DNA from: Verrucomicrobiota bacterium
Lineage (GTDB): Bacteria > Verrucomicrobiota > Kiritimatiellia > UBA8416 > SLMC01
Length of the DNA: 64,000 nucleotides
Reading direction: 5' to 3'
Assembly (NCBI GenBank): GCA_030018915.1
Contig: JASEHE010000001.1
Location: forward strand, 15,843 to 79,842
Shown in pieces: positions 6,911 to 33,098 of this stretch (the first letter of the stretch is position 1; each line of letters opens with the position of its first letter). The position numbers were made by a program, and so were the translations under genes. Under the pieces are notes generated by a model. It had not been told where the DNA came from. It did not search any database and saw only the letters and a program-made list of their open reading frames with translations.

Positions 6911-6948
6911 CGACGCCGATCCTAATCGCCCGCCGTCTCGCTTTAGCT

Positions 6949-9035: not shown

Positions 9036-10699
9036 CGGAGCCTGTCTCCGCTGGTTTCAATGGGTTTGTTCAGGCGCGCGCGAATGGTGAACTCCCAGGT
9101 GGAATCAATCAGCAGTTGGCGCTCCAGCTCCGTCTTGTCGGAAAAAAGGCCCGATTCGCGGAGCCGGTCCCGATAGACCACGATCGGCGTCTTGTCCACC
9201 GTGGCCGCCAGCTTGAGCTTATCGTCAAACCCACGCCCGACGATCTCTACCCCTTCCACACGGTCGCCGGCCGGGGCGAGCGGCCGGATCGAGTTGAGCC
9301 ACATTCCGTCCAGCAGGCACGCGTGAATCGCATCAATCATTTGCAGCCATTGCGTCCGCGTCCCGATGACCAGCGCGATCTCGTCCAGGTCCTTCTGGAC
9401 GGCCTGCTTTTCTTGCTGGACGCTCTTGAGGCGGCCTTCGATTTTCCGGAAATCCGCGATCCGTTTTCCCGCGGTTTCGAGCCGGGTTTCCAGCATGGCC
9501 CGCATCCGGTGGAAGTAGACCCACCAGCAGAGCATCGTCAGGATCAGGCCGACCCCGGCCAGGATGAAGAACGGTTGCCGGCGCCGGAGTACCCGCCGGG
9601 CCAGGAGGTCGGGCGGCATGAGGTTGATTTCAACCGGACAAGTCAAGGCCCGCCGCAGGGCCAGGCCGGCCACCTCCCCGAGGAGGTGGAGGTCCCCCTC
9701 AATGCGCTTGGGCTCAATGGACTCGTTGACGGCTATGTTGGCGAACGGGTTGAGGTATTCCACTTCGACCGTGAGCTTCTCCCGGAAGAACGTATCCATG
9801 TGCGGGATGATCGCCGAGCCGCCGGTCAGCAGCACGAGACTCGGCGGTTGACCGCCCTGCTGGCTCCGGTAGAAGTTGATCGAGCGGTTGATTTCGGCGT
9901 GGAGCCGGGTGATGACGTTGCGCGCGATCTTGGACACCCGGTTCGCCGTCTCGTTCTCCGGTCCGGCGTAGACGCCGCCGAAGGCGACGAACGCGTGAGC
10001 CAGCTTCAACTCCTCGGCCTCCTTGAAGGGAATCCCGAACTCCTTCATGAGTTCTGTCGTAATCGCGTTGCCGGCCACAGGAATGCTGCGGCTGAAAATC
10101 CGGCTCTCCTCGATGAAGATCAGGTTCGACGATCGAGCGCCGATGTCCAGAACCATGGCGCAGCCGGGAAGGCCCGGATAGTTGTAGCGGACCGTGTTGT
10201 ACAGGGCCATGGGCGCCGCGTCTATGATTTCCGGCTCGAGGCCGGCCGCCAGCACGCAGTCCGTCAGCCGCGTGATGTTCTCGATCTTGACGGCCACCAG
10301 CATGACGTTCAGGTCGTCCGGTCCTCCGCCGCTGATCAACTGGTAGTCCCAGACCACCTCGTCAATCGGGAACGGGACGTTCTGCTCGGCTTCGTAGCGG
10401 ATGATCTGCACGACCTTGTCTCGGGCCACGGGCGGCAGCTTGACGTACCGCGGGAACACCGCCTGGCCCGACAGGGTCATGAAGAGCGGCGCCGGCTTGA
10501 TGCCGCGCTCGGCCATCAACTGGCGAATGGTGGAGACAATATAGGCGGATGCGTCGGTCTCGCTCTCGGGGTCCACGTCGAGATGCCCGACGGCATAGTT
10601 CAGGAGCTCAGGCGCGCCCGATTTGGCGGCGGAGAACTCCGCCATCACAATCTTACTGGCGCCGACATCCAGGGCGATTATTCGGTCGGTTCGAAACAC
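9032..10699 (-). CDS. pilM: Type IV pilus assembly PilM (actin-like ATPase) fused to PilN-like TM/coiled-coil domain
   Basis: 555 aa. IIALDVGASKIVMAEF actin-like fold start and PilM/FtsA-like core. The C-terminal part carries a TM (FFILAGVGLILTMLCWWVYF) plus coiled-coil, as in PilN. Confidence 0.75.
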   Translation of the reverse strand: MFRTDRIIALDVGASKIVMAEFSAAKSGAPELLNYAVGHLDVDPESETDASAYIVSTIRQLMAERGIKPAPLFMTLSGQAVFPRYVKLPPVARDKVVQIIRYEAEQNVPFPIDEVVWDYQLISGGGPDDLNVMLVAVKIENITRLTDCVLAAGLEPEIIDAAPMALYNTVRYNYPGLPGCAMVLDIGARSSNLIFIEESRIFSRSIPVAGNAITTELMKEFGIPFKEAEELKLAHAFVAFGGVYAGPENETANRVSKIARNVITRLHAEINRSINFYRSQQGGQPPSLVLLTGGSAIIPHMDTFFREKLTVEVEYLNPFANIAVNESIEPKRIEGDLHLLGEVAGLALRRALTCPVEINLMPPDLLARRVLRRRQPFFILAGVGLILTMLCWWVYFHRMRAMLETRLETAGKRIADFRKIEGRLKSVQQEKQAVQKDLDEIALVIGTRTQWLQMIDAIHACLLDGMWLNSIRPLAPAGDRVEGVEIVGRGFDDKLKLAATVDKTPIVVYRDRLRESGLFSDKTELERQLLIDSTWEFTIRARLNKPIETSGDRLR

Positions 10700-10761
10700 C
10701 TTGTCCTCTTCCGCGGATTCCAGTTTCGCGGATTCCGGCGGCGCCGAGTCGAGCCGCCGAC

Positions 10762-11460
10762 CTACTGCCGGATAAACGGATAGTCATCAATGTTGATCAG
10801 GCGAAAAGGCGACTGATCCCGATTCAGGAGATACCCGTCGCGCGGCACAACAATCTTGCTGTCCACCACTTTTTCGTTCCGCCACCACTTTTCCCCGGCC
10901 GGCATTGGGACGTCGGTCTCGCTCATCTCGTCAATGATCTTCCCCCCGCGCAGAACTTCGACGCCGATGGCCACAACCTTGCCGTGCCGCTTGAGGGCGG
11001 TGGGAGTAAGATAGACCGAGCAGACGCGACCGCGGCCCCTCTCGATGTCCCTGTAGGTCACCGTGGTCTTGTAGAGACTGTACATTTTCCCCTTTTCGCC
11101 CTCTTTCGACGTCATGACGTAGAACCGCATCATGAGTTCGTTAATCCAGTCGGGGAACACATCGAAGGTGAGCGTGATCTCCGCCCAGTCTTGCGGCGCC
11201 GTCGTGGGGCTGACGCCGGCGCGGAAGTTCGGCGTCTTGATGTAGCCGCGTTCGGCGAGTCCCGTGAACTTGCGGAGGCGAACGACGTTGCTCGGCCTCT
11301 CGCCCGGCGTCGGTTCCGCCGCGGCTTCGGCGCCGGCGGCCGGGCCTTCCTCTTTTTTTGCGCCAGCCTTCGCCCGTTCAACGGAAACGGCGGTGAGACT
11401 CAACACCAATGCCAGCAGCCCGCCGGCCAGACACAAACGCCGAACGAGGTTCGTCATCAT
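10762..11460 (-). CDS. Secreted pilus-cluster protein (Amuc_1102-like position)
   Basis: Start chosen at MMTNLVRRLCLAGGLLALVLSLTAVSV signal peptide (the longer upstream ORF is R/P-rich and implausible). ~233 aa. First gene of the pilMN–secretin operon, 62 nt upstream of pilM. Confidence 0.5.
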   Translation of the reverse strand: MMTNLVRRLCLAGGLLALVLSLTAVSVERAKAGAKKEEGPAAGAEAAAEPTPGERPSNVVRLRKFTGLAERGYIKTPNFRAGVSPTTAPQDWAEITLTFDVFPDWINELMMRFYVMTSKEGEKGKMYSLYKTTVTYRDIERGRGRVCSVYLTPTALKRHGKVVAIGVEVLRGGKIIDEMSETDVPMPAGEKWWRNEKVVDSKIVVPRDGYLLNRDQSPFRLINIDDYPFIRQ

Positions 11461-11576
11461 AAACCTCCCGTGGGTCAAAAAAACGCGCGGCAATCCCGCA
11501 AACAACGAACGGGGGGACATATAGAAGATATGCCACGACAAAGCAAAGCAAAAATGCCGGAAACTTTTTCGCGGCA

Positions 11577-11586
11577 GGGGGGGGGG
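11577..11586. repeat. Homopolymeric G10 (C10) tract in the divergent promoter region between the pilus operon and the secreted-protein genes
   Basis: Ten consecutive G read directly at 11577-11586. It lies 117 nt upstream of the pilus-operon first gene (minus strand) and 271 nt upstream of the 490-aa secreted-protein gene (plus strand). Confidence 0.6.
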
Positions 11587-11705
11587 CAGTCGCGGGGTGG
11601 CGCCCCGGCGGCTTGCGCGGCCGGAGTTCGATATTTCCGCGTCCCCGCGGCGCAAGGCCGCAGGGACGCCACCCCGGACCACCCCGTTATTTCGCGTTTT
11701 TGCGG

Positions 11706-11856: not shown

Positions 11857-13329
11857 ATGAAAGGCGATTCGAGAAATTCCCGCCGCCCGATCCTGGGACT
11901 TCTTTCCGCGGCCGCGCTCGCCGCCTTGGCAGGACAAGCGACGGCTCAGACCCTCATGCCATACTACGACACCTTCGAAGACCACACGAACAACCAGACG
12001 ATCATCGGCGCCAACGGGTGGCTGGCGTTGACCAACATCTATGCCGTGGGAACCAACACGGGGCCCTACACCTACACCAACGCATGCGGATTGCCCTTCC
12101 CCACCTCGAACCACAACGTCGTGGTCAAGCTGGACACAGAGAACTCCTCCGTCTCTAACTGCTTCAGCTACGGCGCGACGACCCCCACCAACGTGTGGGT
12201 GGACAATATGATCCAGTTCGTGATGTCTCCGGATGAAGACGCCCGGGGCGTGATCACCAACGACAACAAGATCCAGTTGGCGTACTACGTCAACACGAAT
12301 GGAAATCCTGTTTTCCTCCACAGCGCGCGATGGTTTGACACGGAGGAGTGGGAATACAGGGCCACCAACGTTTTCTCCACTGTCTCGGACGTCACGATAC
12401 CGACTGGGGCTTGGGCACGGGTAACCGTGACAATGGACTACAAATCAGACAACGTAAGGAACCACAAGTATTTCCGGATCGCTTTCAACGGTCATACGGT
12501 CACAAGCGACTTGGCGTATGCCCTGCCCCTAAATGCCGACCCCCCTAGCGCGACGGGCACGTATTTTGTCTGCGCGAATTTCCAGACCGCCACCGGTCTC
12601 AAGTTGAATTCGGTGAACTTCTCGGGCACCGGACACCTCGACGACTACAAGGTGGAGGGCGACGCGGCGCCTCAGATCGCCATCATCGCCGCGATATGGT
12701 CCGACGGCGCTTCGGGCGATACGCGGGGCGGGTGGATCACGCCGGGGCTGCTCGTCTACGTGAACTCCGGGGGCGGCACGAACTTCTCGATCGGCGCCAA
12801 TACCTATTGGAGCTACACCAATCTAGTTGTTAACGGCGCGCCGCAAACTCCTACGAACCTCCTCGCCTTCAACAACGTCACGTCCAACCAGTTCTTCGCC
12901 GCCTACTTCGCCGCCGACCGGACCACCAACCGAATCCCGCACTGGTGGCTCGCCGAGCAGAACTCGGGCTGGACCAACGACTTCAACGCGGCTGCATCGG
13001 GTGATCCTGACGGCGACGGCCTGCTGACCTGGGAGGAATACCTCGCGAGCACGGATCCCAACGACAGCAACTCGGTGTTCCGGATTATTGAGTTCACGAC
13101 CCAGGACAACGGCACCAACTACACCATCCGCTGGCCTACGGCGTCCATTGACCCCGTGTTCGGCGGCATTCCGTTCCTCGTACTGCGGACCGACAACCTC
13201 ACCAACGAGTCCTGGCCCGTGGCTGGGACCGTTCCGCGGGCCGTCGGGATTTCCCAGTTCAGCGATGCCCCCCCGCCCGCGAGCAACCCGGTCTTCTACC
13301 GCGTTGCCGTGACCAATACGACGCAATAG
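11857..13329 (+). CDS. Secreted modular protein (~490 aa): N-terminal beta-sandwich/lectin-like module, DPDGDG Ca-binding-like motif, C-terminal FYRV domain shared with the giant neighbour
   Basis: GGAGG RBS 9 nt upstream of ATG. Signal peptide MKGDSRNSRRPILGLLSAAALAALAGQATAQ. PYYDTFEDHTNNQTIIGANGW resembles the repeated module of the downstream giant protein. GDPDGDGLLTWEEY motif. C-terminal ...NPVFYRVAVTNTTQ. Confidence 0.6.
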   Translation: MKGDSRNSRRPILGLLSAAALAALAGQATAQTLMPYYDTFEDHTNNQTIIGANGWLALTNIYAVGTNTGPYTYTNACGLPFPTSNHNVVVKLDTENSSVSNCFSYGATTPTNVWVDNMIQFVMSPDEDARGVITNDNKIQLAYYVNTNGNPVFLHSARWFDTEEWEYRATNVFSTVSDVTIPTGAWARVTVTMDYKSDNVRNHKYFRIAFNGHTVTSDLAYALPLNADPPSATGTYFVCANFQTATGLKLNSVNFSGTGHLDDYKVEGDAAPQIAIIAAIWSDGASGDTRGGWITPGLLVYVNSGGGTNFSIGANTYWSYTNLVVNGAPQTPTNLLAFNNVTSNQFFAAYFAADRTTNRIPHWWLAEQNSGWTNDFNAAASGDPDGDGLLTWEEYLASTDPNDSNSVFRIIEFTTQDNGTNYTIRWPTASIDPVFGGIPFLVLRTDNLTNESWPVAGTVPRAVGISQFSDAPPPASNPVFYRVAVTNTTQ

Positions 13330-13375: not shown

Positions 13376-13592
13376 CATCGCGCGCCGGCTCTCCACAGCC
13401 ATCGCTCCGGCAGTGGGAATTCTTCACATTTCCTTGACGCTGTTGTCCTTGCCGTTCCTTTTCCCCCTGTGCTATAATTGCCGAAAACAGGGTGGATTGT
13501 GCCGCTGTCCCACGGGCTGGAACCCGTGCGCCGCAGCCGGGCGATGGCACGGCGGATGCTCCGTGGAATCTGAACGTCAGAGGCGAGGTGTC

Positions 13593-16500
13593 ATGAGGCG
13601 GTCAATTGGAATCTCTTTTCTGCTGCTCGGGGCAATGCTGGCAATGGCCCCTCGATCTCGCGCGGCCTATTACGACCAAGACTTCAACGACTTCGCCTAC
13701 GCCTACTACGGAACCACGGTGACGAATGGCGACGGATGGGCGGTGTCGCATTGTTACGTCAGCAACGCATTCCGGTACTGCCGAATGGGCGCGACCAACT
13801 ATCAGGACGCGACCCGTCTCGCGTATGTGATCTCGCCTCTGTTGACGAATGGGATCGGGAGGATCTCCTGGGAAACCAAGAACCAGCAAGCGGGGAACAA
13901 CGTCTACGACCTCCAGTACTCCACCAACGGAACGGCATGGACATGGGGCGGCGCCTACACGAACAGTGACGTCAATTGGATATCAAACTCCCTCGCCCTG
14001 ATCAGCTATGCGAGCGTCTACGTCCGATTCATCAAGACGGCCGATCCCGGCGGCCCCAACGATCGATTGTACTTCGACAACATCCGGATTATTCCCGCGG
14101 CGTCGTACGTTGTGATCACGAATATCGCGCTCAGCCCGGACCCTCCGCTGACCGACGGCTCCGTTCAGGTTTCCGCGACGATCCTGCCCTGCGCACAAGC
14201 CGGCAACGTCTCGGCGTGGGTGTACTATGCGACGTCCGGCGCCCGGCCGTTCGCGAACTACGCGTCTATGTCCACCACCGGCAACAACTACTACGTCACA
14301 TCCAGCGGGATTCCGGCCCACTCCCAGCCGGGCCTCACGGTAAAATACTACCTCTATGCGACCTTCAGCGGAGTCACCCCGTTGACCCCAACAAGTTCCC
14401 CGCCCGGCTCGGTTGGCTACTATTGGTATTTCTTGCGGGCGGCTTCCAACGAATCCGCCTACCCGAACATGCAAATCACGGGCGCGGCCACCACCAACAT
14501 GCTCCTGGCCGCCGACTACCTGTGGCAGGGCGTCATCACACCGCCCGGGCCTCTGACCAACCCCACGTTCTCGTTCGCCTCCGGAACCAACTCCTGGGGC
14601 GACACCAATCAGCCGGTCACGGCTCTGCCCGTGTATGGCGCCGCCGACCCGGGCGCGAACATCAACGTGAATGAGACCGTCACCAACTACCTGTCGTTCC
14701 TGTTCAACGAGACCAACCTGAGCTACAGCATTCAGAACTCCTCCTGCCTCAACTTCGACGCCTGGACCAACGGCACGACCGCCAGCTACGGCGCCTATAC
14801 CAACGGCGAGGGCTGGGTCATCGCGGGCCGAATCAACACCCTCGGCGCCGGCGAAACCGCCCGCGCTTTCATCAACCGGTACGGAATCCTCCATCCGACT
14901 CTCCCTATCAACGAACCGATCCACTACCTGCAATCCCCCCAGCGCGAGGGCGGAATCGGCTCCGTCTCCTTCTGGTATCGGAACTGGGATGCGGCGCCGA
15001 CCAATCCGGCCACCGATGCCGCCGGCTTCACGGTCCAGAAGTCCACGAACGGCGCGGCCGGGACATGGATGGATATCAGTCCCACCATCTGGCAGACCAA
15101 CATCCTGTCCACGAATTGGCTCTACTTCGCCGCCTCGGTGGCCGACCGCAAGAGCGCCTACGTCCGGATCGTCAACACCAACAACACCTCCTCGCGGTCC
15201 TGGCTGTGTCTGGACGAAGTGGTCGTCACCGACCCTGGCGCCACCGTGGACATCACGGAGAACCCGCGCAACCCAACGACCCCGCTGGCCGGGCAATGGG
15301 TGGACGTCTCGATTAATGTGACGCCATGGGGTGGCGCGACCAATCTCGCCTGCGCCGTCTACCAGCAACCGGAGGGGATGGCCACGGTTCCGTACGCCAT
15401 GACCCGGGTGGCAGGCAACACATTCTCCGTGTCTCTCCCGCCCTCCCCGCCGGGCCGAGTCTACTACTACTACGCATGCAACTACGGGGGATTCAATGCG
15501 ACCCCGATTTATTACCCGGATGGCGCCCCGGGACAAACGCTGGTCTATACCAATCTGACGGACCCCGGGTCAGCCCGGCAGCAGGATTTCCTGCCGTTCA
15601 ATATCGCCAACTACGGCACAACCGTGACAAACAGCGACGGATGGTCGGTGTCGCACTGCTACGTCAGCAACGCTTTTGCCCACTGCCGCATGGGCCCCAC
15701 CAACTATGGCGGAGGCACTCGCTTCGCCTACCTGGCCTCGCCTTTGCTGACGAACGGTTTTGGCAACGTCTCCTGGTCGGTCCGAAACTACCAAGCCGGT
15801 CAAAACACGTACGAGGCGCAGTATTCCACCGACCAGACAAACTGGGTCTCGCTCGGCGCGTATGCCAACGACAGTACCGCATGGGTCACCAACCGTGTGT
15901 GGGGAGGAATTTATGAAGATTCCTGCGTGCGGATTATCAAGACCGGCGACCCTGGCGAGGCCAATGATCGGCTCTACTTCGACGACATTCTCATCAGCCC
16001 GCCGCCGTGCGATGTGGTGATTTCAGAGCCGCCCTTCTTCACGCCGGGCTATCCGGCCAGGAATCAGCCCGTGACCGTCTCGGTGTTCATCACGGACCGG
16101 AGCGCCAACTATCCGGCCTGCAATCGCATCACGACGCTCCACTACACGCATTCCGGCGGAGCCGGCGGCGTGGTGGCCATGACGCAAGGCGGCGGAAACG
16201 CATGGTCCGCGGTGGTCCCGGGATTCCCGGCCGGAGTCGTTTCTTACTACATCCGATGCTGCTTCGACGGCTACTACTACACGAACGGAGCCTTCTCCGA
16301 GAACCAGAGCCCTGCTTTCTCGCCCGACGCGCCGCCGACGGCGCCGGAGCCGAGCGCCCGTCACACCCACACGATCCGCGAGTTCGAGTCCGACTACGAC
16401 TCCATCAAGGTGAACCTGTCCTACACCAACACACCGATCGCAATGCGCCAGTTGAACGACTATGAGTGGCAGGGCATCCTGGACTTCGGCTACGGCACGA

Positions 16501-19500
16501 TGGACCCGGCCCTGAACCTGGCCGGCTTCAGTTGGTTCACCCAGACCAACTACTGGGGCGGCACCAACGAGTGGGGCGATCCGGGCCAGACCCGTTCGAG
16601 CCTCCCATTGACCGGCGTCATGAGCGCTGGCCCCTCGAATATCACGCTGTGCGGCCCGCAGTACGGCCAGGTAGTGATCCGGTTCAACGAGTCCAGCTCG
16701 AACTACACAGTGCAGCGCTGCGCGTACCAGGACTTCAACCGCTGGTCGGCCTCCTCCGACTTCTTCGAGGAAACCTGCAGCAGCGTCGGCGTCACATCGC
16801 GCGTCCAGAACTTCGACACGTGGGCAACCAACCCGCCATACATTCAAAAGGACGACTTCGAAAGCGCATACTGGTGGAATAATATCTACGGCTCCCACTA
16901 CCCGTCGTGGGACACCCGCCTGGTTCAGGGTCCCTCGTTCTGGACGTTCGCGCACTACAAGCTCACCAACAACTTCGAATTGGCGGGCGTCGGCAAGTGC
17001 GCTGTTCTCAAGGATGAGGCCAACTCCGGCCTGTTCTATTCGTCTTACCGCAATCCCATTGCTGACAATGGCCATGGACTCGGCTTCCTGGAGATGGACT
17101 TCCGGTGCCAGGACAACAATTGGAAGCCCACTTTGTACGAGCACAACGTCTGGTCAAATTCAGCCATTGAAGCCGCCGTCACCGCCACCGAACTGCCCAT
17201 CAGCGCGAATGGACTCATGCTGGGTCCCTCCTGGCTCTCTCTGCTTTCCCGCTATACGGCCGAAAACAACTACTATGAGCTCCGGTGGGAACACACCGGC
17301 TTGGGCCCTAGCGGGTTGGGCAAGCGTCGCCTCGGAATCTATCGCCGTTCTCCAGATCCGGTCGGCTTCACGCTTCTGGAATCTTCCGCCGAGTATAACG
17401 GCTTTCTCTCCACTACGAACACGCTGCGCTTTGTCGTGAGCGCGGCGGCCGGCGGAAAGGTCTATCTGCAGGGTCTTCTGGATGGCGCCCGTGTCGTGCA
17501 TGCAATAGACAACACCGGCTATGTCATCACCGATCCCGGCTCCATCGGCATCAACACCAGGGACGCCTCCATCATGGTCACGAACATCACCGCCGGCTGG
17601 GCGCAGGCGGAATCCTTCCGGGGCTGGCCCGACTTCACGGAGGGGTCCGACACCAACTTCGTCACCAACGGTTGGGCGGCAACGCGAATCTGCGACAGCA
17701 ACGGCAGCGGTGACAGCTGGATCCAACTGCGAGCCTGGAGCGCGGCGGGACAGCCCCCTGCGGTGGTCTCTCCCAAACTGCCGCACGGACTCGGCTTTGT
17801 GAACTATCGCTACAAGAAGTTCGAAGGCAACCCGACCTTGTGCAAGACGCAATGGTCCACCAACCTCGCCGACTGGGTAACCGTTGACGCCTGCGAGATT
17901 GGCGGCAGCGACTGGCAGGACCGGTCTTTCACGGTAACCAACGCGCTCCCCGCCAATATCTACGTCCGATTCCTCAACAGCACAAACGCGTCGGGTGTGT
18001 CAACGAACCTGTATCTCGCCCGCATCGCGCTGCACCCTTCGCCGACGCGCGGCTACGCCGAGAACTTTTCGGACAACCAGGCTCAGGGCTGGACCGGCGA
18101 TCCGAACTGGTGGAAGGTCAACACCAACGGGGTGCCACGCTACACCCGAACCGGCTATGCGGCCGCGCCGCTCAAGTTCGTGGTCAGCACGGCCAAGGAG
18201 AGCGACGAGAGCCAGCTGGCCCTGGACTCTCCCTGGGTCTTCAACGCCGCGTACACGGTCAGCAACGTCTCGTTTGTTCACTTGTCCCATCCCATCCGGT
18301 GGGCCGAACATCCCGGCACGCTCGGAGAAGGCGTCTACGTGCGGGTCAAGCACACCGACACGGACGCCAGCCTCGTGGTGGACAACGTCCAGATTGACCG
18401 CTGGCACGGCTACACGGCGAACGTCAACGGCTGGTCCGCCACCGAGTGCTGGACCTCGATGCGCGCCGCGAACGACGACTACACGGCCCACACCAACTGC
18501 CTCGAACTTCGCCATTCCCGGGCCTATACCAACATCTACGAGCGCCCATACTCCATCGGTGGCCAGTATGCGCGCAGCCCCTACCTCACTAACGGGATCG
18601 GCGTTCTCTCCTTCTCTTTCAAGAACGTCGCGCCCGAACCCAACCCGCTCGACACTGGGCAACCGGTATCTTTCGACTACTACCAGGGTGAGTGGACCAA
18701 TCTGCCGGATTTCGCCGGCCTCACCCCCTACATCTCAGGCACAACCAATAATTTCGACACGGCAGTCGCGCTCCGGCCAACCAACTTTGCCATCCGCTTC
18801 ACCGGCTATATCTACATTCCTACCAACGGCGCCTGGCTCTTTTCGACGGAATCCTCGGAGGGCAGCAAACTGTACATTGATGGAACCGAATTGGTGAACA
18901 ACGACGGGATTCACGCCAAGCAGAAGATCTCGGGATCGAACACCTTGAATCTGGGCTGGCACGACATCAAGGTCACGTATTTCAACGGCGCCGGCACTAA
19001 TGCCGCCTCTTTGGAGGTCCGATACGCAGGGCCAGGGGTCTCGGATCAGCCGATCCCCTCTTACGCCATGATTGTCGAGCCGGCCGTAGTCAAGGTGGAA
19101 ACGGCTGCCACCCCATTCCCGAGCACATGGAACACTCGCGCCACATACACAAACAACTGCCCTACCAAATGGACGTCCAAATCTATTTCCATCAACATCC
19201 CCAGTCCCTATATCGCCGCCAGAATCCTCCACGTGTCCACGAACTATCAAACCGGAATCCTCCTGGACAACTTCGAGGTGAATGACTTCGTGGAGCGCGA
19301 TCAGTTCACCTGGGTCGCCTACAACGCCCTGATCACGTCCAACCAGGCCAGCCGGCTCATGGACATCAAGGGCGGGTACCTCAACTACGACACCGTGAAC
19401 CAGACGGCCAAGCCGCCCATGACCAACGATCGGCCATATATTCAGTCCGCCAACCTGACGAACGGCATCGGCGAGATCAGTTTCTGGTATCGCGCCTGGG

Positions 19501-21035
19501 GCGGCGCTCCGCCCGCGGGCAACCCTGGAATCATCCGCATTGTCAAGGCGCCGGTGGAGACGGCGCCGGCCGGCGACTGGCTGCCGCTCCTGACGATCTC
19601 CAACATCACGACCACCACGTTCACCTACTTCACAACCAACTTCTACGACGCCACGAACCACTACGTCAGGCTCTACAGCGACACCACCGGCGTGGGCCGC
19701 GTCTGCCTCGACAACGTCCTGATCACCGCCCCCTTCGGCGCCGACATCTCCATGACCAACCTCTACATCGAGCCGGCCATCCCGCTGAACACCAACGCCG
19801 TGCACGTCTACGTGGACCTGTTCGACTTCTTCCTCAACCCCCAGAACATCGCCGTCAGCCTCCACTACTATGCCGCGCCCAACCAATGGGGCACCCTCCC
19901 TAACGGCACCCGCTTCTACCAGGGCACCAACCAGTGGGGCGCCTGGACCGGCGGATCCACGATCCCCATGACCGTCGTCAGCACGAACGGCTACTACGTG
20001 CGCTACAAGACCACGTCACCCATCCCGGTTCAAGCCATTGACCAGCCCGTCCAGTACTACGCGTCGGTCGCGTTCACCGGCATGTTCAGCGAGGCGGTCA
20101 GCCCCAGGTCCTGCAGGCAGTTCGTGAACGCGGCCCACTACTATCCGATCAACCTGAACGCCGGCCTGACCACGAACCGCATTCCCTACTACATCGTCTT
20201 CTCCTGCCTGCCGGGGCACGTCTGGATCAACGAAATCAACACCAGCGACGACTCCTACTGGCCGACGGCCGCCATGCAGTACGTCGAGCTCTGCGGGCGC
20301 ACGGGCAGCACCGTCAGCAACTGGTGGATCCAGATCTTCAGCCCCGGCTACAGCCAGCTTGCCTGGTATCGTGTGACCAATCCGCCCGCGCTGACCGACG
20401 AGAACAACGGCTACGGCTTCTGGGTGTTCGGCGACTCCCACACTCCGTCCCGCGATCTGACAATGACCGTCGAGGTGGGAAGTCCTCCCCACGAATCGCG
20501 GACGCTCCCGGCCGCCGGCGGAATCCGCCTGCGCCGGAGCATGGGCGCCTACGAGCAGGCGATCTCATACGATGCGCATGAGGGCGGCGGCGGCCGCAAC
20601 CTGGAGCCCTACGGATTCGTCTACGTCGGCCCCGACGACGACTTCCTGGACTCCCCCGTGTCCGCGTACGGGACCGGATCCAACAGCGCCGGCTTCACCT
20701 GGCGCAACGACACGACACCCTTCACACCCGGTGCCGTGAATACCGGCCAAACGCTGCTCGACTGGCGGACCGGCGGGGAACAGAACGCGCCACTCGTGGC
20801 AATCACCGCCTTCTGGATCGAGGGCGGAACCAGCGCGCACGTGACCTGCACCGGCACCAACGGCTGGTCTCCCTGGCTCTACTACTGCACGAACCTCCTC
20901 ACCACGCCCACGAACGGCTGGACTCTGGCCACAACCAACTCCACCTACGCCAACGGCACCAACCAGATCACCTCCACAGTGCTCACCAACCTGCCCGTCA
21001 TCTTCTACCGCGTCGTCGCCACCAACAGCGGCTGA
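13593..21035 (+). CDS. Giant secreted modular protein (~2480 aa) with PA14 domain, five related beta-sandwich-like modules, Ig-like spacers and C-terminal FYRV domain
   Basis: Signal peptide MRRSIGISFLLLGAMLAMAPRSRAA. Near-duplicate ~140-aa modules appear at ~13668-14090 and ~15578-16000 (YGTTVTNGDGW/SVSHCYVSNAF..CRMG.TNY...LTNG(I/F)G..SW). Further LTNGIG..SF(W/S) modules appear later. PA14 signature FAIRFTGYIYIPTNGAWLF...KLYIDG...GWHDIKVTYFNGAG...LEVRYAGPG at ~18786-19060. C-terminal ...LPVIFYRVVATNSG. Confidence 0.7.
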   Translation: MRRSIGISFLLLGAMLAMAPRSRAAYYDQDFNDFAYAYYGTTVTNGDGWAVSHCYVSNAFRYCRMGATNYQDATRLAYVISPLLTNGIGRISWETKNQQAGNNVYDLQYSTNGTAWTWGGAYTNSDVNWISNSLALISYASVYVRFIKTADPGGPNDRLYFDNIRIIPAASYVVITNIALSPDPPLTDGSVQVSATILPCAQAGNVSAWVYYATSGARPFANYASMSTTGNNYYVTSSGIPAHSQPGLTVKYYLYATFSGVTPLTPTSSPPGSVGYYWYFLRAASNESAYPNMQITGAATTNMLLAADYLWQGVITPPGPLTNPTFSFASGTNSWGDTNQPVTALPVYGAADPGANINVNETVTNYLSFLFNETNLSYSIQNSSCLNFDAWTNGTTASYGAYTNGEGWVIAGRINTLGAGETARAFINRYGILHPTLPINEPIHYLQSPQREGGIGSVSFWYRNWDAAPTNPATDAAGFTVQKSTNGAAGTWMDISPTIWQTNILSTNWLYFAASVADRKSAYVRIVNTNNTSSRSWLCLDEVVVTDPGATVDITENPRNPTTPLAGQWVDVSINVTPWGGATNLACAVYQQPEGMATVPYAMTRVAGNTFSVSLPPSPPGRVYYYYACNYGGFNATPIYYPDGAPGQTLVYTNLTDPGSARQQDFLPFNIANYGTTVTNSDGWSVSHCYVSNAFAHCRMGPTNYGGGTRFAYLASPLLTNGFGNVSWSVRNYQAGQNTYEAQYSTDQTNWVSLGAYANDSTAWVTNRVWGGIYEDSCVRIIKTGDPGEANDRLYFDDILISPPPCDVVISEPPFFTPGYPARNQPVTVSVFITDRSANYPACNRITTLHYTHSGGAGGVVAMTQGGGNAWSAVVPGFPAGVVSYYIRCCFDGYYYTNGAFSENQSPAFSPDAPPTAPEPSARHTHTIREFESDYDSIKVNLSYTNTPIAMRQLNDYEWQGILDFGYGTMDPALNLAGFSWFTQTNYWGGTNEWGDPGQTRSSLPLTGVMSAGPSNITLCGPQYGQVVIRFNESSSNYTVQRCAYQDFNRWSASSDFFEETCSSVGVTSRVQNFDTWATNPPYIQKDDFESAYWWNNIYGSHYPSWDTRLVQGPSFWTFAHYKLTNNFELAGVGKCAVLKDEANSGLFYSSYRNPIADNGHGLGFLEMDFRCQDNNWKPTLYEHNVWSNSAIEAAVTATELPISANGLMLGPSWLSLLSRYTAENNYYELRWEHTGLGPSGLGKRRLGIYRRSPDPVGFTLLESSAEYNGFLSTTNTLRFVVSAAAGGKVYLQGLLDGARVVHAIDNTGYVITDPGSIGINTRDASIMVTNITAGWAQAESFRGWPDFTEGSDTNFVTNGWAATRICDSNGSGDSWIQLRAWSAAGQPPAVVSPKLPHGLGFVNYRYKKFEGNPTLCKTQWSTNLADWVTVDACEIGGSDWQDRSFTVTNALPANIYVRFLNSTNASGVSTNLYLARIALHPSPTRGYAENFSDNQAQGWTGDPNWWKVNTNGVPRYTRTGYAAAPLKFVVSTAKESDESQLALDSPWVFNAAYTVSNVSFVHLSHPIRWAEHPGTLGEGVYVRVKHTDTDASLVVDNVQIDRWHGYTANVNGWSATECWTSMRAANDDYTAHTNCLELRHSRAYTNIYERPYSIGGQYARSPYLTNGIGVLSFSFKNVAPEPNPLDTGQPVSFDYYQGEWTNLPDFAGLTPYISGTTNNFDTAVALRPTNFAIRFTGYIYIPTNGAWLFSTESSEGSKLYIDGTELVNNDGIHAKQKISGSNTLNLGWHDIKVTYFNGAGTNAASLEVRYAGPGVSDQPIPSYAMIVEPAVVKVETAATPFPSTWNTRATYTNNCPTKWTSKSISINIPSPYIAARILHVSTNYQTGILLDNFEVNDFVERDQFTWVAYNALITSNQASRLMDIKGGYLNYDTVNQTAKPPMTNDRPYIQSANLTNGIGEISFWYRAWGGAPPAGNPGIIRIVKAPVETAPAGDWLPLLTISNITTTTFTYFTTNFYDATNHYVRLYSDTTGVGRVCLDNVLITAPFGADISMTNLYIEPAIPLNTNAVHVYVDLFDFFLNPQNIAVSLHYYAAPNQWGTLPNGTRFYQGTNQWGAWTGGSTIPMTVVSTNGYYVRYKTTSPIPVQAIDQPVQYYASVAFTGMFSEAVSPRSCRQFVNAAHYYPINLNAGLTTNRIPYYIVFSCLPGHVWINEINTSDDSYWPTAAMQYVELCGRTGSTVSNWWIQIFSPGYSQLAWYRVTNPPALTDENNGYGFWVFGDSHTPSRDLTMTVEVGSPPHESRTLPAAGGIRLRRSMGAYEQAISYDAHEGGGGRNLEPYGFVYVGPDDDFLDSPVSAYGTGSNSAGFTWRNDTTPFTPGAVNTGQTLLDWRTGGEQNAPLVAITAFWIEGGTSAHVTCTGTNGWSPWLYYCTNLLTTPTNGWTLATTNSTYANGTNQITSTVLTNLPVIFYRVVATNSG

Positions 21036-21186: not shown

Positions 21187-23547
21187 TCAGTCGCCTGAGC
21201 CGAGCCAGCGGAAGAACTGTACAAAGCATTCATGTCGGCCGTCCTTGTTCAGGAAAGGGTCCCGCCAGATCACGGCCATCGCCCGCTGGTACCCGTGCCA
21301 GTCTCCGCCCAGCAGCCCTTTGGATCCCAAGTGGCCGCTCGTCGGCGAATACGGCCCCGCCACCACGAACACCGTGAAGAGGTTCTGCCGCGCGCCAAGC
21401 AGGCCGCACGAGTATGAGATCATTGACTCCAGCTCAAGATCGCTCTTGTTCGAGAAAGTTCCTCTGAAATCTATCCGCCCGATATCGGCGACGTTCGTGA
21501 AGGCCGATCCGGTTTTCCGCATCTCGATGAACGCGCCGGCCAGCGTCTTGGCTTCCGCTACGGTTATTTTGGTTTCCGACTCCGGATACCCCAGCGGCGC
21601 CTCGACAAAGACGGAGGCCAGCACGTTCGAGTTCATGCTGTTCGGGTTCACCAGCCCGCAGCGCGTCCCGACGCCGGGTGGCGCCGTGGTGAAATACGCA
21701 AGGACATTGTCGTATGGCGTGGTATTCGGGGAATTGGTCCCGTGCGTGAACAGACGAATGGTTCTCAGCGGATCCTTCGAGGCCCGCAGCAGGTTCCCAA
21801 GCTCTCCCGCCGACTTCAGTTGCCCCTGGTTCGACACGTGCATCAACGTATCCAAGTCTATCCCGCGCTGAGGCTGCAGCTCCCCGCGCCTGATGCGTTC
21901 TTGCGTCTTCGTATTGACTCCTCCAATCGTGTGCCCGGCGTTCGTCGTCGTCGTGTCCCAGCACAGCGGGCTCGAGCAGTCCCAGTTGACCCGGGGATCC
22001 GTGGCCTCCAGCGATTTGGGCTGCCAATCGAAGTTGCCCCCGGCCAGGCCCGACACGATGAAGCTGTTGGTCCAGGTCAACGCGATGGCGTTCGTGGGAT
22101 AAGGCACGGCGTCCACCATCGCGTTCGGCGGCCCGCCGCCAATCGCCTCTTTGCAGTACACCACGCAGCGCACCCTCAGCGTCACGGCGATCCGGTTGGT
22201 CGGCCAACAGCCGTCGATCGAGACGTCTCCCACACCCCCCCGCAAGTCCGTCGAACCGTACCAGTTCGCCTCCCCCTTGTACCCCGAATAGCGCGTTTGC
22301 GGGTACGGGGGCATCTTCTTCGTCTCCTCGGCATTCGCGGCGCTCTCGTAAGCGAAGCGGGCAAGCTCGCATTCCGTCGTCGTTTCGATGTCGAACGTCG
22401 TGTTGGTCTGGCCCCGGATGAACGGGTAGAACCACTCCACCCGGATCCGTCGCGGCGGCGTCATCGAAAAGGTCCCCCCCTCCTCGCCCGTGATGTAGTT
22501 CAGAACCACTGTGGTTGGCGCCACCTCGTTGATCATGGGCACGGATTCCGTGCAGCCGGAGTCCAGGCGCCTTGGCACAACGTCCTCGTCCACGTAGTCG
22601 AGCAGGTTCGTAAAGACAAACGGAGCGTCGGCCAAGGCGATACCGCTTTTCACCAACCGGTCAACGATATCCGCCTGCTTGGCCTCCAGCTCCGCCACAG
22701 TCCCGCCGATGTAGAACGGGGTGACGATGATGGGGGCCCCGTTGGAAAGGACCTGATTCCCCTCCGGGAACCTGGAATAGGCGACGAAATTCGATGGGTA
22801 GCAGTCCTTGTTCAACCCTTTGTCTTCCTGCATCCAGTAGAAATCCCGGATTGTCTCGTAGCGCGCGTCGTTGTTCCGGTTGCCGGTGAGCTTCCCCGAA
22901 TCCTTGATCTCGTTCAGGATGGCGTTAGTGAGGACGATCTCATGCGGGTCTGCGCCCGCCGCGCGGTTGGAGCCGCCCACGTAGTTCATGTCGAGGTAGC
23001 CGGAGATATTCGCCACGACGTAGGCCACCCAACCCTGCACGGTCCCTTCTTCTCTATCCGGCCATAGCGACTCGCCGCAGATGAGCCACTGCGAGTTGGT
23101 CTGCGACATCGGTCCCCACAGGTCCCGCGGAATCTGCTCCATGGTTTCGTCGGAAAACACCACCTTCACCCGCGAATTGTCGACGCTTCTGGCGGTCCAG
23201 TCTTCCGAGGTGAAAACCTGGAAATTGGGATAGACATCGTTGGCCAGATAGCCCGTGATCTTACCGAAATCGTTGGTGAACACGTTGGTCTGCGCTACGT
23301 TGACCGTGATGTCTTCAACGGCCCGCGCCAGGCCCACCCAGACCAGTTGCCGCGCTCCGACGCCGAAGCGGTAACTACCGGCCCCCAGGCGCTCGGTCCG
23401 CATGCTGATGGAAAAGGCAACCCCCGCCATCAGGAGAACGGCCAGAACACCCAGCACGATAATCAGCGCCACGCCCTCGCGGTTCCGTCCTTCTCGAAAT
23501 CCGCGCCCGGCAACCGGCGCGCGACAGTCCGGTTTATTTTTTCGCAT
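21187..23547 (-). CDS. Oversized GspK-like minor pseudopilin (786 aa)
   Basis: N-terminus REGVALIIVLGVLAVLLMAGVAFSI matches the GspK-type prepilin-like hydrophobic segment (no Glu+5). Last gene of a gspG-H-I-J-K-ordered operon. C-terminal ~450 aa beyond normal GspK length. Confidence 0.6.
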   Translation of the reverse strand: MRKNKPDCRAPVAGRGFREGRNREGVALIIVLGVLAVLLMAGVAFSISMRTERLGAGSYRFGVGARQLVWVGLARAVEDITVNVAQTNVFTNDFGKITGYLANDVYPNFQVFTSEDWTARSVDNSRVKVVFSDETMEQIPRDLWGPMSQTNSQWLICGESLWPDREEGTVQGWVAYVVANISGYLDMNYVGGSNRAAGADPHEIVLTNAILNEIKDSGKLTGNRNNDARYETIRDFYWMQEDKGLNKDCYPSNFVAYSRFPEGNQVLSNGAPIIVTPFYIGGTVAELEAKQADIVDRLVKSGIALADAPFVFTNLLDYVDEDVVPRRLDSGCTESVPMINEVAPTTVVLNYITGEEGGTFSMTPPRRIRVEWFYPFIRGQTNTTFDIETTTECELARFAYESAANAEETKKMPPYPQTRYSGYKGEANWYGSTDLRGGVGDVSIDGCWPTNRIAVTLRVRCVVYCKEAIGGGPPNAMVDAVPYPTNAIALTWTNSFIVSGLAGGNFDWQPKSLEATDPRVNWDCSSPLCWDTTTTNAGHTIGGVNTKTQERIRRGELQPQRGIDLDTLMHVSNQGQLKSAGELGNLLRASKDPLRTIRLFTHGTNSPNTTPYDNVLAYFTTAPPGVGTRCGLVNPNSMNSNVLASVFVEAPLGYPESETKITVAEAKTLAGAFIEMRKTGSAFTNVADIGRIDFRGTFSNKSDLELESMISYSCGLLGARQNLFTVFVVAGPYSPTSGHLGSKGLLGGDWHGYQRAMAVIWRDPFLNKDGRHECFVQFFRWLGSGD

Positions 23548-23971
23548 ATCGCCTCGCGTTCACCATATAGGCGCGGGTTATATACTGCTGTTCCATTGAC
23601 TTCGGCAACGATTCTGCGGTGCGCTGCACCCTATACGGTTTCTTCCAGGGATCGTTGAAGCCGTTGACCAGTTGCCGATCGGAAAAAGTCATGAACTTGA
23701 TGTTGTTCGTGTTGTTCCACGCCAGGATGGCCACTTGGGCGTAATCCATCTCAACCCACGCATTACCATAGGGCCACAGCTGGTAGGTGTCCCAGTAGCT
23801 CTCCCATGCCTTGGCCAGGTCCGCCGCTTCCGACCTGGCCTTTCGGACTCTGGCCATCCGCTGCGCGTGAACAAGCGCTGGAAACATAAGACCAGCCAAC
23901 ACCAGGATGATCAACACCACTACCAGTATCTCAATGAGCGTGAACGCCCGCCGCGCCGCGGCTTCCACCAT
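23534..23971 (-). CDS. Type IV pilin-like / pseudopilin protein
   Basis: Start chosen at MVEAAARRA-FTLIEILVVVLIILVLAGLMFPAL, a class III prepilin cleavage/methylation N-terminus. Confidence 0.6.
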   Translation of the reverse strand: MVEAAARRAFTLIEILVVVLIILVLAGLMFPALVHAQRMARVRKARSEAADLAKAWESYWDTYQLWPYGNAWVEMDYAQVAILAWNNTNNIKFMTFSDRQLVNGFNDPWKKPYRVQRTAESLPKSMEQQYITRAYMVNARRYAKK

Positions 23972-24063
23972 TTTGTGGCACTCATGGCCAGGCTCTTTAT
24001 TCGGCAATCGGCAATCGGCAATCGGCATTCCGTTGTGGCCCTGCCGCTCTGTGTTCATCGAGT

Positions 24064-24726
24064 TCATTGGTCCGTCCGGATGTTGTCGTCTTCCGCATCC
24101 CAGTTGCCGTCCGGCCCGCCCGATCCCGCCACGATTCGGGAGACTTGGTACGAAGAACCCATCTTAATCTTGATGTCCACGAACTGCGGGAGGTTGCTCC
24201 TGTTCATGGAATACTCCTCATCGGAGGGGCAAAATATCAGCTCATTAACGTGTTTCGCCAGGGTCCCCGATTTCTTCGGCAACTCCGTCCCTGGGTATCC
24301 CCCGCTAAGTTCGTGCCGAACCATCTCTCGCACAATCGTCTCATCCTGGTGGAAGTAACGAATCCGGTAGATCGCGCGATTAGTGTCCGTGGCATCCTCA
24401 ATCAAGTAGAAAGCGATTTTATCCGGCTCGATCGTGAACGGGAGCAGTTCGTTTGCCACGGCCTGGCACAGTTCCCGGCCCATGAAGGTCGCGGCAGCTC
24501 TCCCCTCCACGTTCAACTTCGATCTCCGCATCCCAACGTCCCAGGCCACGCGCATCTGATTGAACACGCTGCCAATCATCATCACGATCATCATCAGGAT
24601 CACTGCGGCAACGAGAATCTCCAAAAGAGTGAATCCGTTTTCCCTCAACACGCCGGCGTCCGCCGTTTTGCCCGCAAAACGGACAGTTCGAATCTCAGAT
24701 CGACTTCGTATTTCGCGCTTCAACAT
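24064..24726 (-). CDS. Pseudopilin (GspJ position)
   Basis: Start chosen at MLKREIRSRSEIRTVRFAGKTADAGVLRENG-FTLLEILVAAVILMMIV prepilin-type N-terminus. The longer ORF start would overlap the upstream gene by 40 nt. Confidence 0.55.
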   Translation of the reverse strand: MLKREIRSRSEIRTVRFAGKTADAGVLRENGFTLLEILVAAVILMMIVMMIGSVFNQMRVAWDVGMRRSKLNVEGRAAATFMGRELCQAVANELLPFTIEPDKIAFYLIEDATDTNRAIYRIRYFHQDETIVREMVRHELSGGYPGTELPKKSGTLAKHVNELIFCPSDEEYSMNRSNLPQFVDIKIKMGSSYQVSRIVAGSGGPDGNWDAEDDNIRTDQ

Positions 24727-24730
24727 AACC

Positions 24731-24756
24731 GCCCACCGACTACCGACCACCGATAC
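24731..24756. repeat. ACCGAC heptad repeat (x3) copy between two pseudopilin genes
   Basis: CCCACCGACTACCGACCACCGATACT in the 30-nt gap between the GspI-position and GspJ-position genes. Confidence 0.45.
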
Positions 24757-25319: not shown

Positions 25320-25358
25320 GGTTGCGCCCCCGCGCCGTCAATGTTCGGTTTCTTACGG

Positions 25359-26069: not shown

Positions 26070-26085
26070 TGCGGCTTGCCTCCTG

Positions 26086-33083: not shown

Positions 33084-33098
33084 TGGGACGGGCGCCGG

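Follow-up and report, generated by a model that had tools for sequence, protein, structure and literature searches.

A giant lectin-type protein encoded beside a type IV filament machine in uncultured Verrucomicrobiota: a candidate glycan-binding adhesin

What does a very large exported protein do when its gene lies between a pseudopilin operon and a locus like the MUL2 locus of Akkermansia? Such a gene occurs in the window analyzed here (the whole stretch of DNA, 64,000 nucleotides from a Verrucomicrobiota bacterium; Table 1). The evidence establishes the domain content of the protein (hereafter, the giant), its synteny, a C-terminal domain (CTD) that it has in common with a second protein, and its promoter motifs. 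Most likely, the giant serves as the glycan-grabbing adhesin of the adjacent machine, a role that we infer.

Table 1. Features of the giant gene, its product and the neighboring genes in the window
Feature	Position	Strand	Basis or remark
Giant protein CDS, 2,480 aa	13593..21035	+	ATG 13593, stop 21035
Sec-type signal peptide of giant, aa 1-24		+	MRRSIGISFLLLGAMLAMAPRSRA, followed by AYYDQ; A-x-A-like site
Module copy 1, aa 42-194	13716..14174	+	galactose-binding-domain-like jelly roll; BLAST similarity to copy 3 from aa 29
Spacer repeat 1, aa 216-400	14238..14792	+	all-beta, presumed Ig-like; recurs at aa 911-1053 and in every homolog
Module copy 2, aa 401-573	14793..15311	+	BLAST and HMM
Module copy 3, aa 677-830	15621..16082	+	BLAST and HMM
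Conserved central region, aa 1040-1345	16710..17627	+	no recognizable family
Module copy 4, aa 1352-1493	17646..18071	+	HMM
Partial module copy, aa ~1533-1604	18189..18404	+	HMM positions 56-132, E = 1e-6
Module copy 5, N-terminal half, aa 1606-1694	18408..18674	+	HMM
PA14 domain, aa 1695-1827, in loop of module 5	18675..19073	+	PF07691 and excision test
Module copy 5, C-terminal half, aa 1828-1906	19074..19310	+	HMM
Module copy 6, aa 1902-2073	19296..19811	+	HMM
Conserved Ig-like and lamin-tail-like region, aa 2100-2393	19890..20771	+	
Family-specific CTD, aa 2394-2480	20772..21032	+	ends FYRVVATNSG
Partner protein, 490 aa, signal peptide	11857..13329	+	carries the CTD of the giant; same strand, 5' of giant
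Perfect 11-bp GC hairpin after partner stop codon	13350..13375	+	without T-run
Sigma-70-like promoter match TTGCCG-18-TATAAT, extended -10	13449..13478	+	consensus match alone
Sigma-54-type promoter TGGCACGGCGGATGCT	13545..13560	+	-24 GG and -12 GC intact; 32 nt 5' of giant ATG
MUL2-like operon: secretin (TPR), Amuc_1099-like, Amuc_1100-like, PilM, Amuc_1102-like	3992..11682	-	7DSZ, E = 1e-8; PMC13174399
786-aa protein at GspK position of pseudopilin operon, N-terminal hydrophobic segment	21187..23547	-	convergent with giant
Four minor pseudopilin genes	23534..26156	-	N_methyl, one GspH-like
GspG-like pseudopilin	27129..27917	-	T2SSG and N_methyl
Type IV pilin gene, 132 aa	29531..29926	-	MKKRG, then FTLVEIM...
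Perfect sigma-54 promoter TGGCACAAGTATTGCT	30031..30046	-	104 nt 5' of pilin gene
Sigma-54-dependent response regulator, PilR-like	30317..31711	-	
GspF/PilC-type platform protein and two GspE/PilB-type ATPases	31863..36606	-	MshEN

Export and repeated modules

The giant is 100% identical to an NCBI protein from a metagenome-assembled genome (MAG), ‘PA14 domain-containing protein [Verrucomicrobiota bacterium]’. The initial annotation described a secreted PA14-domain ORF of ~2480 residues; this is confirmed by the ORF itself, its Sec-type leader, and a PF07691 match. Full-length homologs carry a similar Sec-type leader. The protein contains 31 cysteines and lacks a long hydrophobic segment. The type IV pilin or pseudopilin signature is absent: the leader is of the Sec type and not class III (G, then F/M and xxxE), and there is no N_methyl match. 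Searches of the whole protein and of the CTD against Pfam and NCBIfam returned no match for PEP-CTERM, T9SS, LPXTG, or autotransporter signals. The best explanation is that the giant is exported by Sec and folds as a string of beta-sandwich domains. Its N-terminal three-quarters carry the lectin-type modules: CBM/MAM-like jelly rolls, six and a half in number, together with a single nested PA14 domain.

The jelly rolls are copies of a ~160-aa module, and an HMM built from them resolves six as complete and one as partial, recovering the copies at E = 1e-15 to 1e-41. Copies 1 and 3 share 56% identity over 158 aa (E = 3e-56), and the remaining pairs align at E = 1e-6 to 1e-13. At the sequence level, the repetition is far above chance; the five copies first proposed thus hold as a repeat, and their number is corrected by the HMM. 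By fold, the predicted module structure (pLDDT 91.6) belongs to the galactose-binding-domain-like/CBM-MAM jelly-roll superfamily, as a beta-jelly-roll sandwich that superposes on domains of the CBM, MAM, or Reelin type. Identity to solved structures of this group is 9-18%. By eye, the motif layout SPxL..G.G..SFwYR ... W ... YVRI ... lxlDdi is like that of CBM4/22/35/36, MAM, Reelin subrepeat B, the gingipain cleaved-adhesin domain, and choice-of-anchor J; unlike its galactose-binding-domain-like relatives, however, the module forms a super-repeat in which a ~185-aa spacer invariably follows in alternation.

Neither the whole giant nor copy 1 matched MAM (PF00629), F5_F8_type_C (PF00754), or Reelin_subrepeat-B at E ≤ 1. 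Among 49 modules from the family, weak matches were obtained to MAM in nine (best E = 8e-5), to F5_F8_type_C in three (best E = 2e-4), and to Reelin_subrepeat-B in three (best E = 4e-3). The NCBIfam model for choice-of-anchor J (NF038128) matched 11 of the 49 weakly (best E = 3.2e-7), and returned no match with copy 1 of the window or with the whole giant. By these profile comparisons, choice-of-anchor J is probably the nearest named sequence family. An early suggestion that the module may be of an undescribed kind is not upheld, as homologous copies match choice-of-anchor J, F5/8-C, and MAM weakly; the converse, that it maps to a known family, holds in part at the level of fold and fails at that of sequence family, as copy 1, scanned individually, matches no curated model at E ≤ 1. 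The modules and the PA14 domain probably bind polysaccharide or glycoprotein multivalently, glycan binding being suggested solely by fold class. CBM/MAM-type folds also serve protein-protein contacts, as in MAM and Reelin. Interchangeable domains inserted in homologs (labeled F5/8-C, MAM, or LamG) were considered and rejected; these labels probably reflect faint matches of the modules themselves.

The PF07691 match spans aa 1729-1819 (E = 2.3e-11; 44.1 bits against a cut-off of 24). When aa 1695-1827 are removed, copy 5 again gives one match over the full length of the module, and PA14 is therefore nested within that copy; among family members it is confined to the giant of the window. The spacers had been called Ig-like: their repetition (aa 216-400 against aa 911-1053) is recovered, and the Ig-like fold is presumed, with no relatives in Pfam or the PDB. 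The central region (aa 1040-1345) shows 42% mean column identity and aligns in 7 of 28 homologs at E < 1e-5; Pfam, NCBIfam, and PDB profile searches with it returned neither a catalytic family nor a relative. Its consensus carries, by eye, a module-like GLGxxxFxYRC motif. A by-eye assignment of this region to LamG was dropped, as there is no Pfam or PDB relative and the module match is not significant.

The C-terminal domain and the partner protein

Conservation is highest in the C-terminal 380 aa of the giant (39% mean column identity vs. 25% for the modules), for which the predicted structure consists of Ig/LTD-like sandwiches, the likeness to the lamin tail domain (LTD, PF00932) being tentative. 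The CTD itself, ~85 aa ending in FY[RK][VI]xxTN, includes terminal positions that are among the most conserved. Every one of the 35 giants carries it within 10 aa of the C-terminus, as do the partners, and the 134 database representatives listed include just two exceptions. No Pfam or NCBIfam model matches the CTD, and its profile has no PDB relative. The partner protein, which ends in the same domain, likewise has no Pfam or PDB relatives; a TSP3-like DPDGDG motif can be seen in it by eye.

Within ~0.7 Mb of fetched PVC DNA, the CTD occurs only in giants and partners. The HMMER scan missed one locus (L001) with default filters and found it with --max. A database search with the CTD gave 543 representative clusters in all, and the 134 new CTD proteins listed are mostly giants (2-9 module matches) or short sequences lacking modules, probably fragments, with eight partner-like. 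Given so few clusters and such carriers, the CTD was rejected as a general PVC sorting tag on unrelated proteins. The conserved C-terminal quarter probably attaches the giant to the neighboring type IV filament machine.

Gene neighborhood and promoters

The giant gene had been placed between the secretin and pseudopilin operons; the placement is correct, and the partner gene lies there as well. The 786-aa protein convergent with it has no Pfam or PDB relatives and can be termed GspK-like only by gene position and its N-terminal hydrophobic segment. The window shows no retraction ATPase, a point against a tip adhesin.

The giant family is confined, in the genome scan, to PVC metagenome genomes (Kiritimatiellia, Victivallales/Lentisphaerae, and unclassified Verrucomicrobiota MAGs). 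Among the 29 GTDB loci with enough downstream DNA, 17 have the 786-aa homolog, pseudopilins, and usually GspF directly after the giant gene, counts that are inflated because the members, all from one related group of phyla, share ancestry; L001 and L005 show the same downstream arrangement. In the other 12 of the 29, no pilus genes lie within 10 kb, which counts against a tip adhesin. Where the arrangement is convergent, the gene ends are ~20-275 nt apart. Adjacency to pilus genes holds at 27-42% protein identity and across several class- or order-level MAG labels, and MUL2-like genes lie upstream of the giant in the window and in L001, L006, L023, L029, and L033.

Sigma-54 sites comparable to that of the giant occur 28-47 nt 5' of the start in 5 of 20 ortholog loci, against a background of 1.5%. 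Across the window, matches with at most one mismatch are not enriched (2 vs. 1.66 expected by chance), and it is their positions alone that are telling. Additionally, unlinked giant paralogs have a sigma-54 regulator directly upstream (L003, L039, L040, L043). As the giant and the pilin gene have sigma-54-type promoters in common and synteny is conserved in 17 of the 29 informative genomes, the giant is linked to the machine, with which it is probably co-regulated. The initial annotation's adhesin or glycan-binding role by way of the adjacent machinery is supported in part: export, a lectin- or adhesin-like character, and linkage to that machinery are borne out. The proposed hairpin-delimited transcription unit is retained only at its upstream end, where the hairpin is strong; the inverted repeat on the downstream side (21132-21173) reaches just 72% complementarity, and no intrinsic terminators were found flanking the gene.

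Possible roles of the giant protein

Our tentative preference is for a multivalent glycan-binding adhesin of the type IV filament machine, with the CTD docked on the minor-pseudopilin tip; glycan binding, export route, and docking are parts that we infer. The CTD or its terminal strand would dock on a tip complex of the 786-aa protein and the four pseudopilins, and the filament would carry the giant through the secretin and display it outside the cell. The partner would use the same docking site through the common CTD, and expression would be coupled to that of the pilin via sigma-54 and the PilR-like regulator. There are precedents: the last ~10 residues of PilC/PilY1 complete the beta-sheet of PilK-family pilins, and the same C-terminal docking is predicted for the ~1,200-aa MshQ, encoded beside pilIJK homologs (PMC13533445). 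The giant resembles these proteins in Sec export, large size, and non-pilin nature, in adjoining genes for PilI/J/K-type minor pilins, and in combining a variable N-terminal binding region with a conserved extreme C-terminus. However, it is about twice their size, its whole 85-aa CTD is conserved and found also in a second protein, and its gene is convergent to the pseudopilin operon instead of part of it, which counts against a tip adhesin. It lacks the beta-propeller of PilY1/PilC (no Pfam match) and is therefore not a PilY1 homolog. More speculatively, and with greater doubt, the giant and its partner might represent a new class among the tip proteins of type IV filaments, one without a propeller (Kiritimatiellia, Lentisphaeria, Verrucomicrobiota), in which the CTD strand would complete the fold of the oversized minor pilin at the GspK position and a MUL2-type filament under sigma-54 control would take the multivalent lectin array of 270 kDa out through the secretin as a glycan ‘harpoon’ for polysaccharide capture.

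It is possible, if on balance unlikely, that the giant is instead a dedicated T2SS-like cargo, as PulA is in Klebsiella, which folds in the periplasm and is pushed through the secretin by the pseudopilus. It would then be a released or loosely surface-held glycan-binding scavenger or adhesin, and the CTD a recognition or retention element and not a docking strand. There are known cases of substrates encoded beside their own T2SS (PulA; 10.1101/2022.09.21.508927), giant genes of Omnitrophota are reported beside T2SS-like loci (10.1101/2023.11.21.568195), and the synteny data fit cargo equally well. Like PulA-type substrates, the giant is large, presumably carbohydrate-directed, and exported by a Sec leader, and it adjoins GspG/H/.../K, GspE, GspF, and secretin genes: the locus includes a GspG-like T2SSG pseudopilin, a GspH-like protein, the large GspK-position protein, GspF, GspE-type ATPases, and a secretin. 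Unlike them, it has neither a catalytic domain nor a lipobox. The ~85-aa domain holds the extreme C-terminal position throughout the family and in the partner, which argues against cargo, since to our knowledge T2SS substrates have no conserved terminal signal. Linkage specifically to the minor-pseudopilin operon also speaks against it, and a separate small type IV pilin with PilR/sigma-54, PilM, and Amuc_1102 (archaeal-pilin-like) points to a true filament.

Less probable still is a surface or envelope glycan-binding protein independent of the pilus (in a surface layer, matrix, or polysaccharide capture) that is exported otherwise and whose synteny is inherited gene order. The 12 loci without pilus genes, as well as L002-L004, agree with such a protein, as do the restriction to one related phylum group and the several giant copies in some MAGs (L007 and L010; L008 and L009). 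Retained adjacency at such low identity with tight convergent spacing, sigma-54 sites of the pilin promoter type, and sigma-54 regulators adjoining the unlinked copies argue against it, and no other export or anchoring signal appears in Pfam or NCBIfam. We consider it highly improbable that the giant is a polysaccharide-degrading enzyme, with the central region as a novel catalytic domain and the modules as its CBMs. CBM-like modules are usually found with glycoside hydrolases or lyases, and the central region is conserved and unassigned; however, the profile searches gave no catalytic family, the region aligns in a minority of homologs, and its consensus motif is module-like.

Were the giant no more than a secreted cargo or an ordinary lectin of the surface, it would simply join the other large CBM-type adhesins. 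The window has the same arrangement of rho, dephospho-CoA kinase, secretin, Amuc_1099, Amuc_1100, PilM, and Amuc_1102 as the MUL2/Amuc_1098-1102 locus of Akkermansia muciniphila (PMC13174399), but adds the giant and partner genes, none of which is described at the Akkermansia locus in the literature found. That system is reported to be needed for intracellular accumulation of mucin degradation products, and glycan engagement by filaments of this type is not described in the literature found. The locus places a lectin-rich giant and its CTD-sharing partner between MUL2-like and minor-pseudopilin genes, in an arrangement conserved across many uncultured PVC genomes, and thereby names the giant as a concrete candidate for the machine's glycan-binding end. 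If it is a tip protein, it would be the substrate-binding component that is missing from the pilus-mediated foraging on glycans proposed for Akkermansia; the locus also offers a concrete test case for the recent model of tip docking by beta-strand addition in a system without PilY1.

Giant genes of Omnitrophota, compared here by description, are likewise from the PVC supergroup, encode surface-type proteins of great length that carry attachment or carbohydrate domains, and occur beside type II/IV-like secretion loci; however, their products measure 10-80 kaa, have other domain sets, and are proposed to act in predation (10.1101/2023.11.21.568195).

Modules and PA14 domain of the giant protein

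The 2,480-aa protein (hereafter the giant) is an exported protein with lectin-type modules and a PA14 domain. It is encoded by a single ORF of 2,480 codons and shares its entire sequence with an NCBI MAG protein, 'PA14 domain-containing protein [Verrucomicrobiota bacterium]'; it is already deposited, named there for PA14 alone. The signal peptide and PA14 signature recognized in the initial annotation were both recovered: a Sec-type leader (MRRSIGISFLLLGAMLAMAPRSRA, followed by AYYDQ) opens the protein, as a leader of equal kind opens its full-length homologs, and PA14 (aa 1729–1819, E = 2e-11) is the sole Pfam domain above threshold. Scanning the giant against NCBIfam returned no match.

The repeated unit of ~160 aa, or module, is evident from tile-against-tile BLAST, in which copies 1 and 3 show 56% identity across 158 aa (E = 3e-56) and other pairs give E = 1e-6 to 1e-13. 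The original count of five copies was too low, since an HMM derived from the copies, after iteration across the 29 giant homologs, places six full copies in the protein (aa 42–194, 401–573, 677–830, 1352–1493, 1606–1906, and 1902–2073) and a partial one at about aa 1533–1604. Every giant homolog, without exception, contains five to ten matches to this HMM. A further repeat, some 185 aa long, follows the modules (aa 216–400 versus 911–1053), and of the 24 homologs with a match to it, most contain it two or three times; the N-terminal half is therefore a super-repeat of module plus spacer. PA14, carried by one of 29 giants (the window's own), interrupts module 5 within a loop, because the HMM splits copy 5 of the intact protein into two pieces (1606–1764 and 1828–1906) and excision of aa 1695–1827 restores a single near-full-length match (HMM 3–139, 77 bits, E = 3e-25).

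An AlphaFold2 model of aa 25–215, built with 49 diverse module copies, was confident (pLDDT 91.6, pTM 0.83). Structural relatives of this model include the Reelin N-terminal region and repeats (scores of 14.0, 13.4, and 13.1), the Lys-gingipain K1 'cleaved adhesin' (13.6), CBM4-2 (12.7), pectate-lyase CBMs (12.6 and 12.3), RPTPmu MAM (12.5), and CBM36, CBM35, CBM22, and CBM29 (10.4–12.2). Against PDB sequences, the module profile returned weak matches only (CBM4, CBM32, a sialidase CBM, enteropeptidase MAM, and neuropilin). When the 49 modules were scanned one by one against Pfam and NCBIfam families, matches were obtained to NCBIfam choice-of-anchor J (11 modules, best E = 3e-7), F5_F8_type_C (9, 8e-5), F5_F8_type_C_2 (6, 3e-5), MAM (3, 2e-4), and Reelin_subrepeat-B (3, 4e-3); copy 1 of the window, scanned alone, matched none of these. 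Together, the model relatives and weak family matches identify the module as a divergent sequence family within the well-known galactose-binding-domain-like jelly-roll superfamily. Its fold is an ordinary one, not a new one, and the earlier suggestion of an undescribed kind of domain was not upheld; modeling, as then proposed, placed the module in a known superfamily at the level of fold, and copy 1 matched no curated sequence family.

A terminal domain shared with the partner protein

The central region of the giant (aa 1040–1345) is conserved in seven homologs at 42% mean column identity, with invariant F/W/E/G/R/Y positions; searches of Pfam and PDB gave no relative for it, and it does not match the module significantly. 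The best-conserved part is the last ~380 aa, which is collinear in most homologs and contains 23 invariant columns (mean column identity of 39%, versus 25% for the modules). The apparent order here is Ig-like, lamin-tail-like, and terminal beta-sandwich. The last ~85 aa (the terminal domain, CTD) follow a pattern common to all giants (I10, YSTNL, W46, and a terminal FY[RK][VI]xxTN), with no relative in Pfam or PDB.

The protein encoded directly upstream on the same strand (the partner) ends in this domain as well (...NPVFYRVAVTNTTQ), as do its counterparts at other loci. It also contains a motif, DPDGDG...EY..TDP, that is TSP type 3-like as judged by eye; Pfam and PDB relatives of the partner were not found. 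A CTD HMM, run with filters off on every ORF in the window and in 46 loci, matched only the 35 giants and the partner proteins, always within six residues of the end. HMMER, run exhaustively against 1.84 billion representatives, returned 543 clusters at E ≤ 1e-3. The 134 new CTD proteins listed carry the match, with two exceptions, no more than 10 residues from the C-terminus; they are mostly giants (2–9 modules) or short sequences lacking modules, probably fragments, and eight are partner-like. By these scans, the CTD is private to the two families. A role as a general sorting tag was rejected, the carriers being giants, partners, and probable fragments. The top match to the CTD profile, a 3,485-aa database protein (P0032), is reached through 55 short partial matches to positions 34–51 (the YSTNL..W core) and appears to be a repetitive protein of another kind.

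Genomic neighborhood and promoter sites

Placement of the giant between a secretin operon and a pseudopilin operon, as initially annotated, is borne out by MUL2-like genes upstream and pseudopilins downstream. The upstream genes, rho and dephospho-CoA kinase included, are ordered as in the pilus-like Akkermansia Amuc_1098–1102 locus, or MUL2 (PMC10688800, PMC13174399), which is reported to be necessary for mucin uptake (PMC12418764). Two of them are homologous to genes on related contigs annotated as Amuc_1100 and as its neighbor, and the Amuc_1102 homolog has a PDB match, 7DSZ, at E = 1e-8. The downstream genes are convergent with the giant, beginning 152 nt past its stop, and encode a 786-aa protein (no Pfam match at E ≤ 1), four N-methyl pseudopilins, a GspG-like pseudopilin, a PAS protein, a small type IV pilin, a sigma-54 response regulator, GspF, and two GspE/PilB-type ATPases. 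The MshEN domain found in both ATPases is of a c-di-GMP-binding type. Scanned window ORFs revealed no PilT-type retraction ATPase.

Features of the giant locus (window coordinates)
Feature	Position	Strand	Details
rho, dephospho-CoA kinase, 5'-3' exonuclease, TPR-secretin, Amuc_1099-like, Amuc_1100-like, PilM, Amuc_1102-like	823–11682	-	Order of genes upstream of giant
Partner	11857–13329	+	490 aa, secreted
Sigma-70-like match	13449–13478		
Giant	13593–21035	+	GAGG/AGGTG 5' of ATG at 13593
Central region of giant	16710–17627	+	aa 1040–1345
786-aa protein	21187–23547	-	GspK position; N-terminal hydrophobic segment
Type IV pilin and its perfect sigma-54 site	29531–30046	-	132 aa, MKKRG|FTLVEIM...
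Sigma-54 response regulator	30317–31711		Pilin gene directly downstream
Two tandem GspE/PilB-type ATPase genes	33099–36606	-	35-nt overlap; MshEN N-domain in both

The same layout is present in three of six homologs with readable contigs (P0011 at locus L001, P0026 at L005, and P0009 at L006, the last for the upstream side only). A GTDB scan with one genome per species, queried with the C-terminal alignment, identified 40 loci, all in MAGs labeled Kiritimatiellia, Victivallales/Lentisphaerae, Verrucomicrobiota, or PVC. In a tblastn search with the window's neighbors, 29 loci were informative (~3 kb or more of downstream DNA, or a partial match): in 17, a homolog of the 786-aa protein, pseudopilins, and usually GspF directly follow the giant, and in the other 12 no pilus genes were seen. 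The gap between giant and 786-aa homolog is about 20–275 nt in convergent loci, and operon orientation is inverted in two loci. The partner and MUL2-like genes lie upstream of the giant in the window, L001, L006, L023, L029, and L033; a partner homolog also precedes it in L005, and L004 has one about 4 kb upstream. Adjacency is kept at 27–42% protein identity, which argues for a functional link between the giant and the pseudopilin operon, and the synteny counts partly reflect shared ancestry, as every member belongs to a single related group of phyla. Some MAGs contain two or more giant genes (L007 and L010 on contigs SLKS01...; L008 and L009 on contigs CAZYAW01...), so that one genome may hold a pilus-linked copy together with unlinked copies.

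Searching all 64 kb for the sigma-54 consensus TGGCAC-N5-TTGCW returned two sites with at most one mismatch against 1.66 expected, a number not above chance; the positions of both sites are informative. The perfect site, TGGCACAAGTATTGCT, is located 104 nt upstream of the small pilin gene and right after the sigma-54 regulator, an arrangement like that of classical PilR/pilA. The one-mismatch site, with GG and GC intact, lies 32 nt before the giant's ATG. Orthologs at L006, L026, L029, and L033 have sigma-54-like sites (≤2 mismatches, GG/GC intact) 28–47 nt before the start, and sites of this kind precede the giant at 5 of 20 loci, compared with a rate of 1.5% in random 150-nt windows. After the partner gene there is a hairpin with a perfect 11-bp GC stem. 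Directly upstream of the giant paralog, a sigma-54 response regulator is encoded in three of the 12 unlinked loci (L039, L040, and L043) and in L003, where a histidine kinase also lies beside it (7083–9807 of that locus).

Possible roles of the giant

We infer that the giant would bind glycans multivalently, displayed by the neighboring type IV filament machine. The mechanism we favor, if tentatively, is one in which the CTD, or the terminal strand of the giant, would dock onto the minor-pseudopilin tip complex. In PilC/PilY1 and MshQ, the last ~10 residues complete a beta-sheet in a PilK/GspK-family pilin, and MshQ was proposed as such a tip protein purely from its place beside pilIJK homologs (PMC13533445). 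The giant resembles these proteins in its putative C-terminal docking but is without a propeller, and was for this reason rejected as a PilY1 homolog; the Sec leader likewise rules out a pilin. Somewhat less probable than tip docking is that the giant is a dedicated, PulA-like cargo of a T2SS. That it is a surface lectin unrelated to the filament machine we consider improbable, and that it is an enzyme with a novel catalytic center very unlikely. The giant is a candidate, specific enough to be tested, for the part of these filaments that would bind glycans.

A limited literature search found no description of the giant family with its private terminal domain, of the partner protein, or of the conserved position of the giant at the minor-pseudopilin operon of a MUL2-type locus. 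The theme has a precedent in Omnitrophota, in which giant genes adjoin T2SS-like loci (10.1101/2023.11.21.568195).
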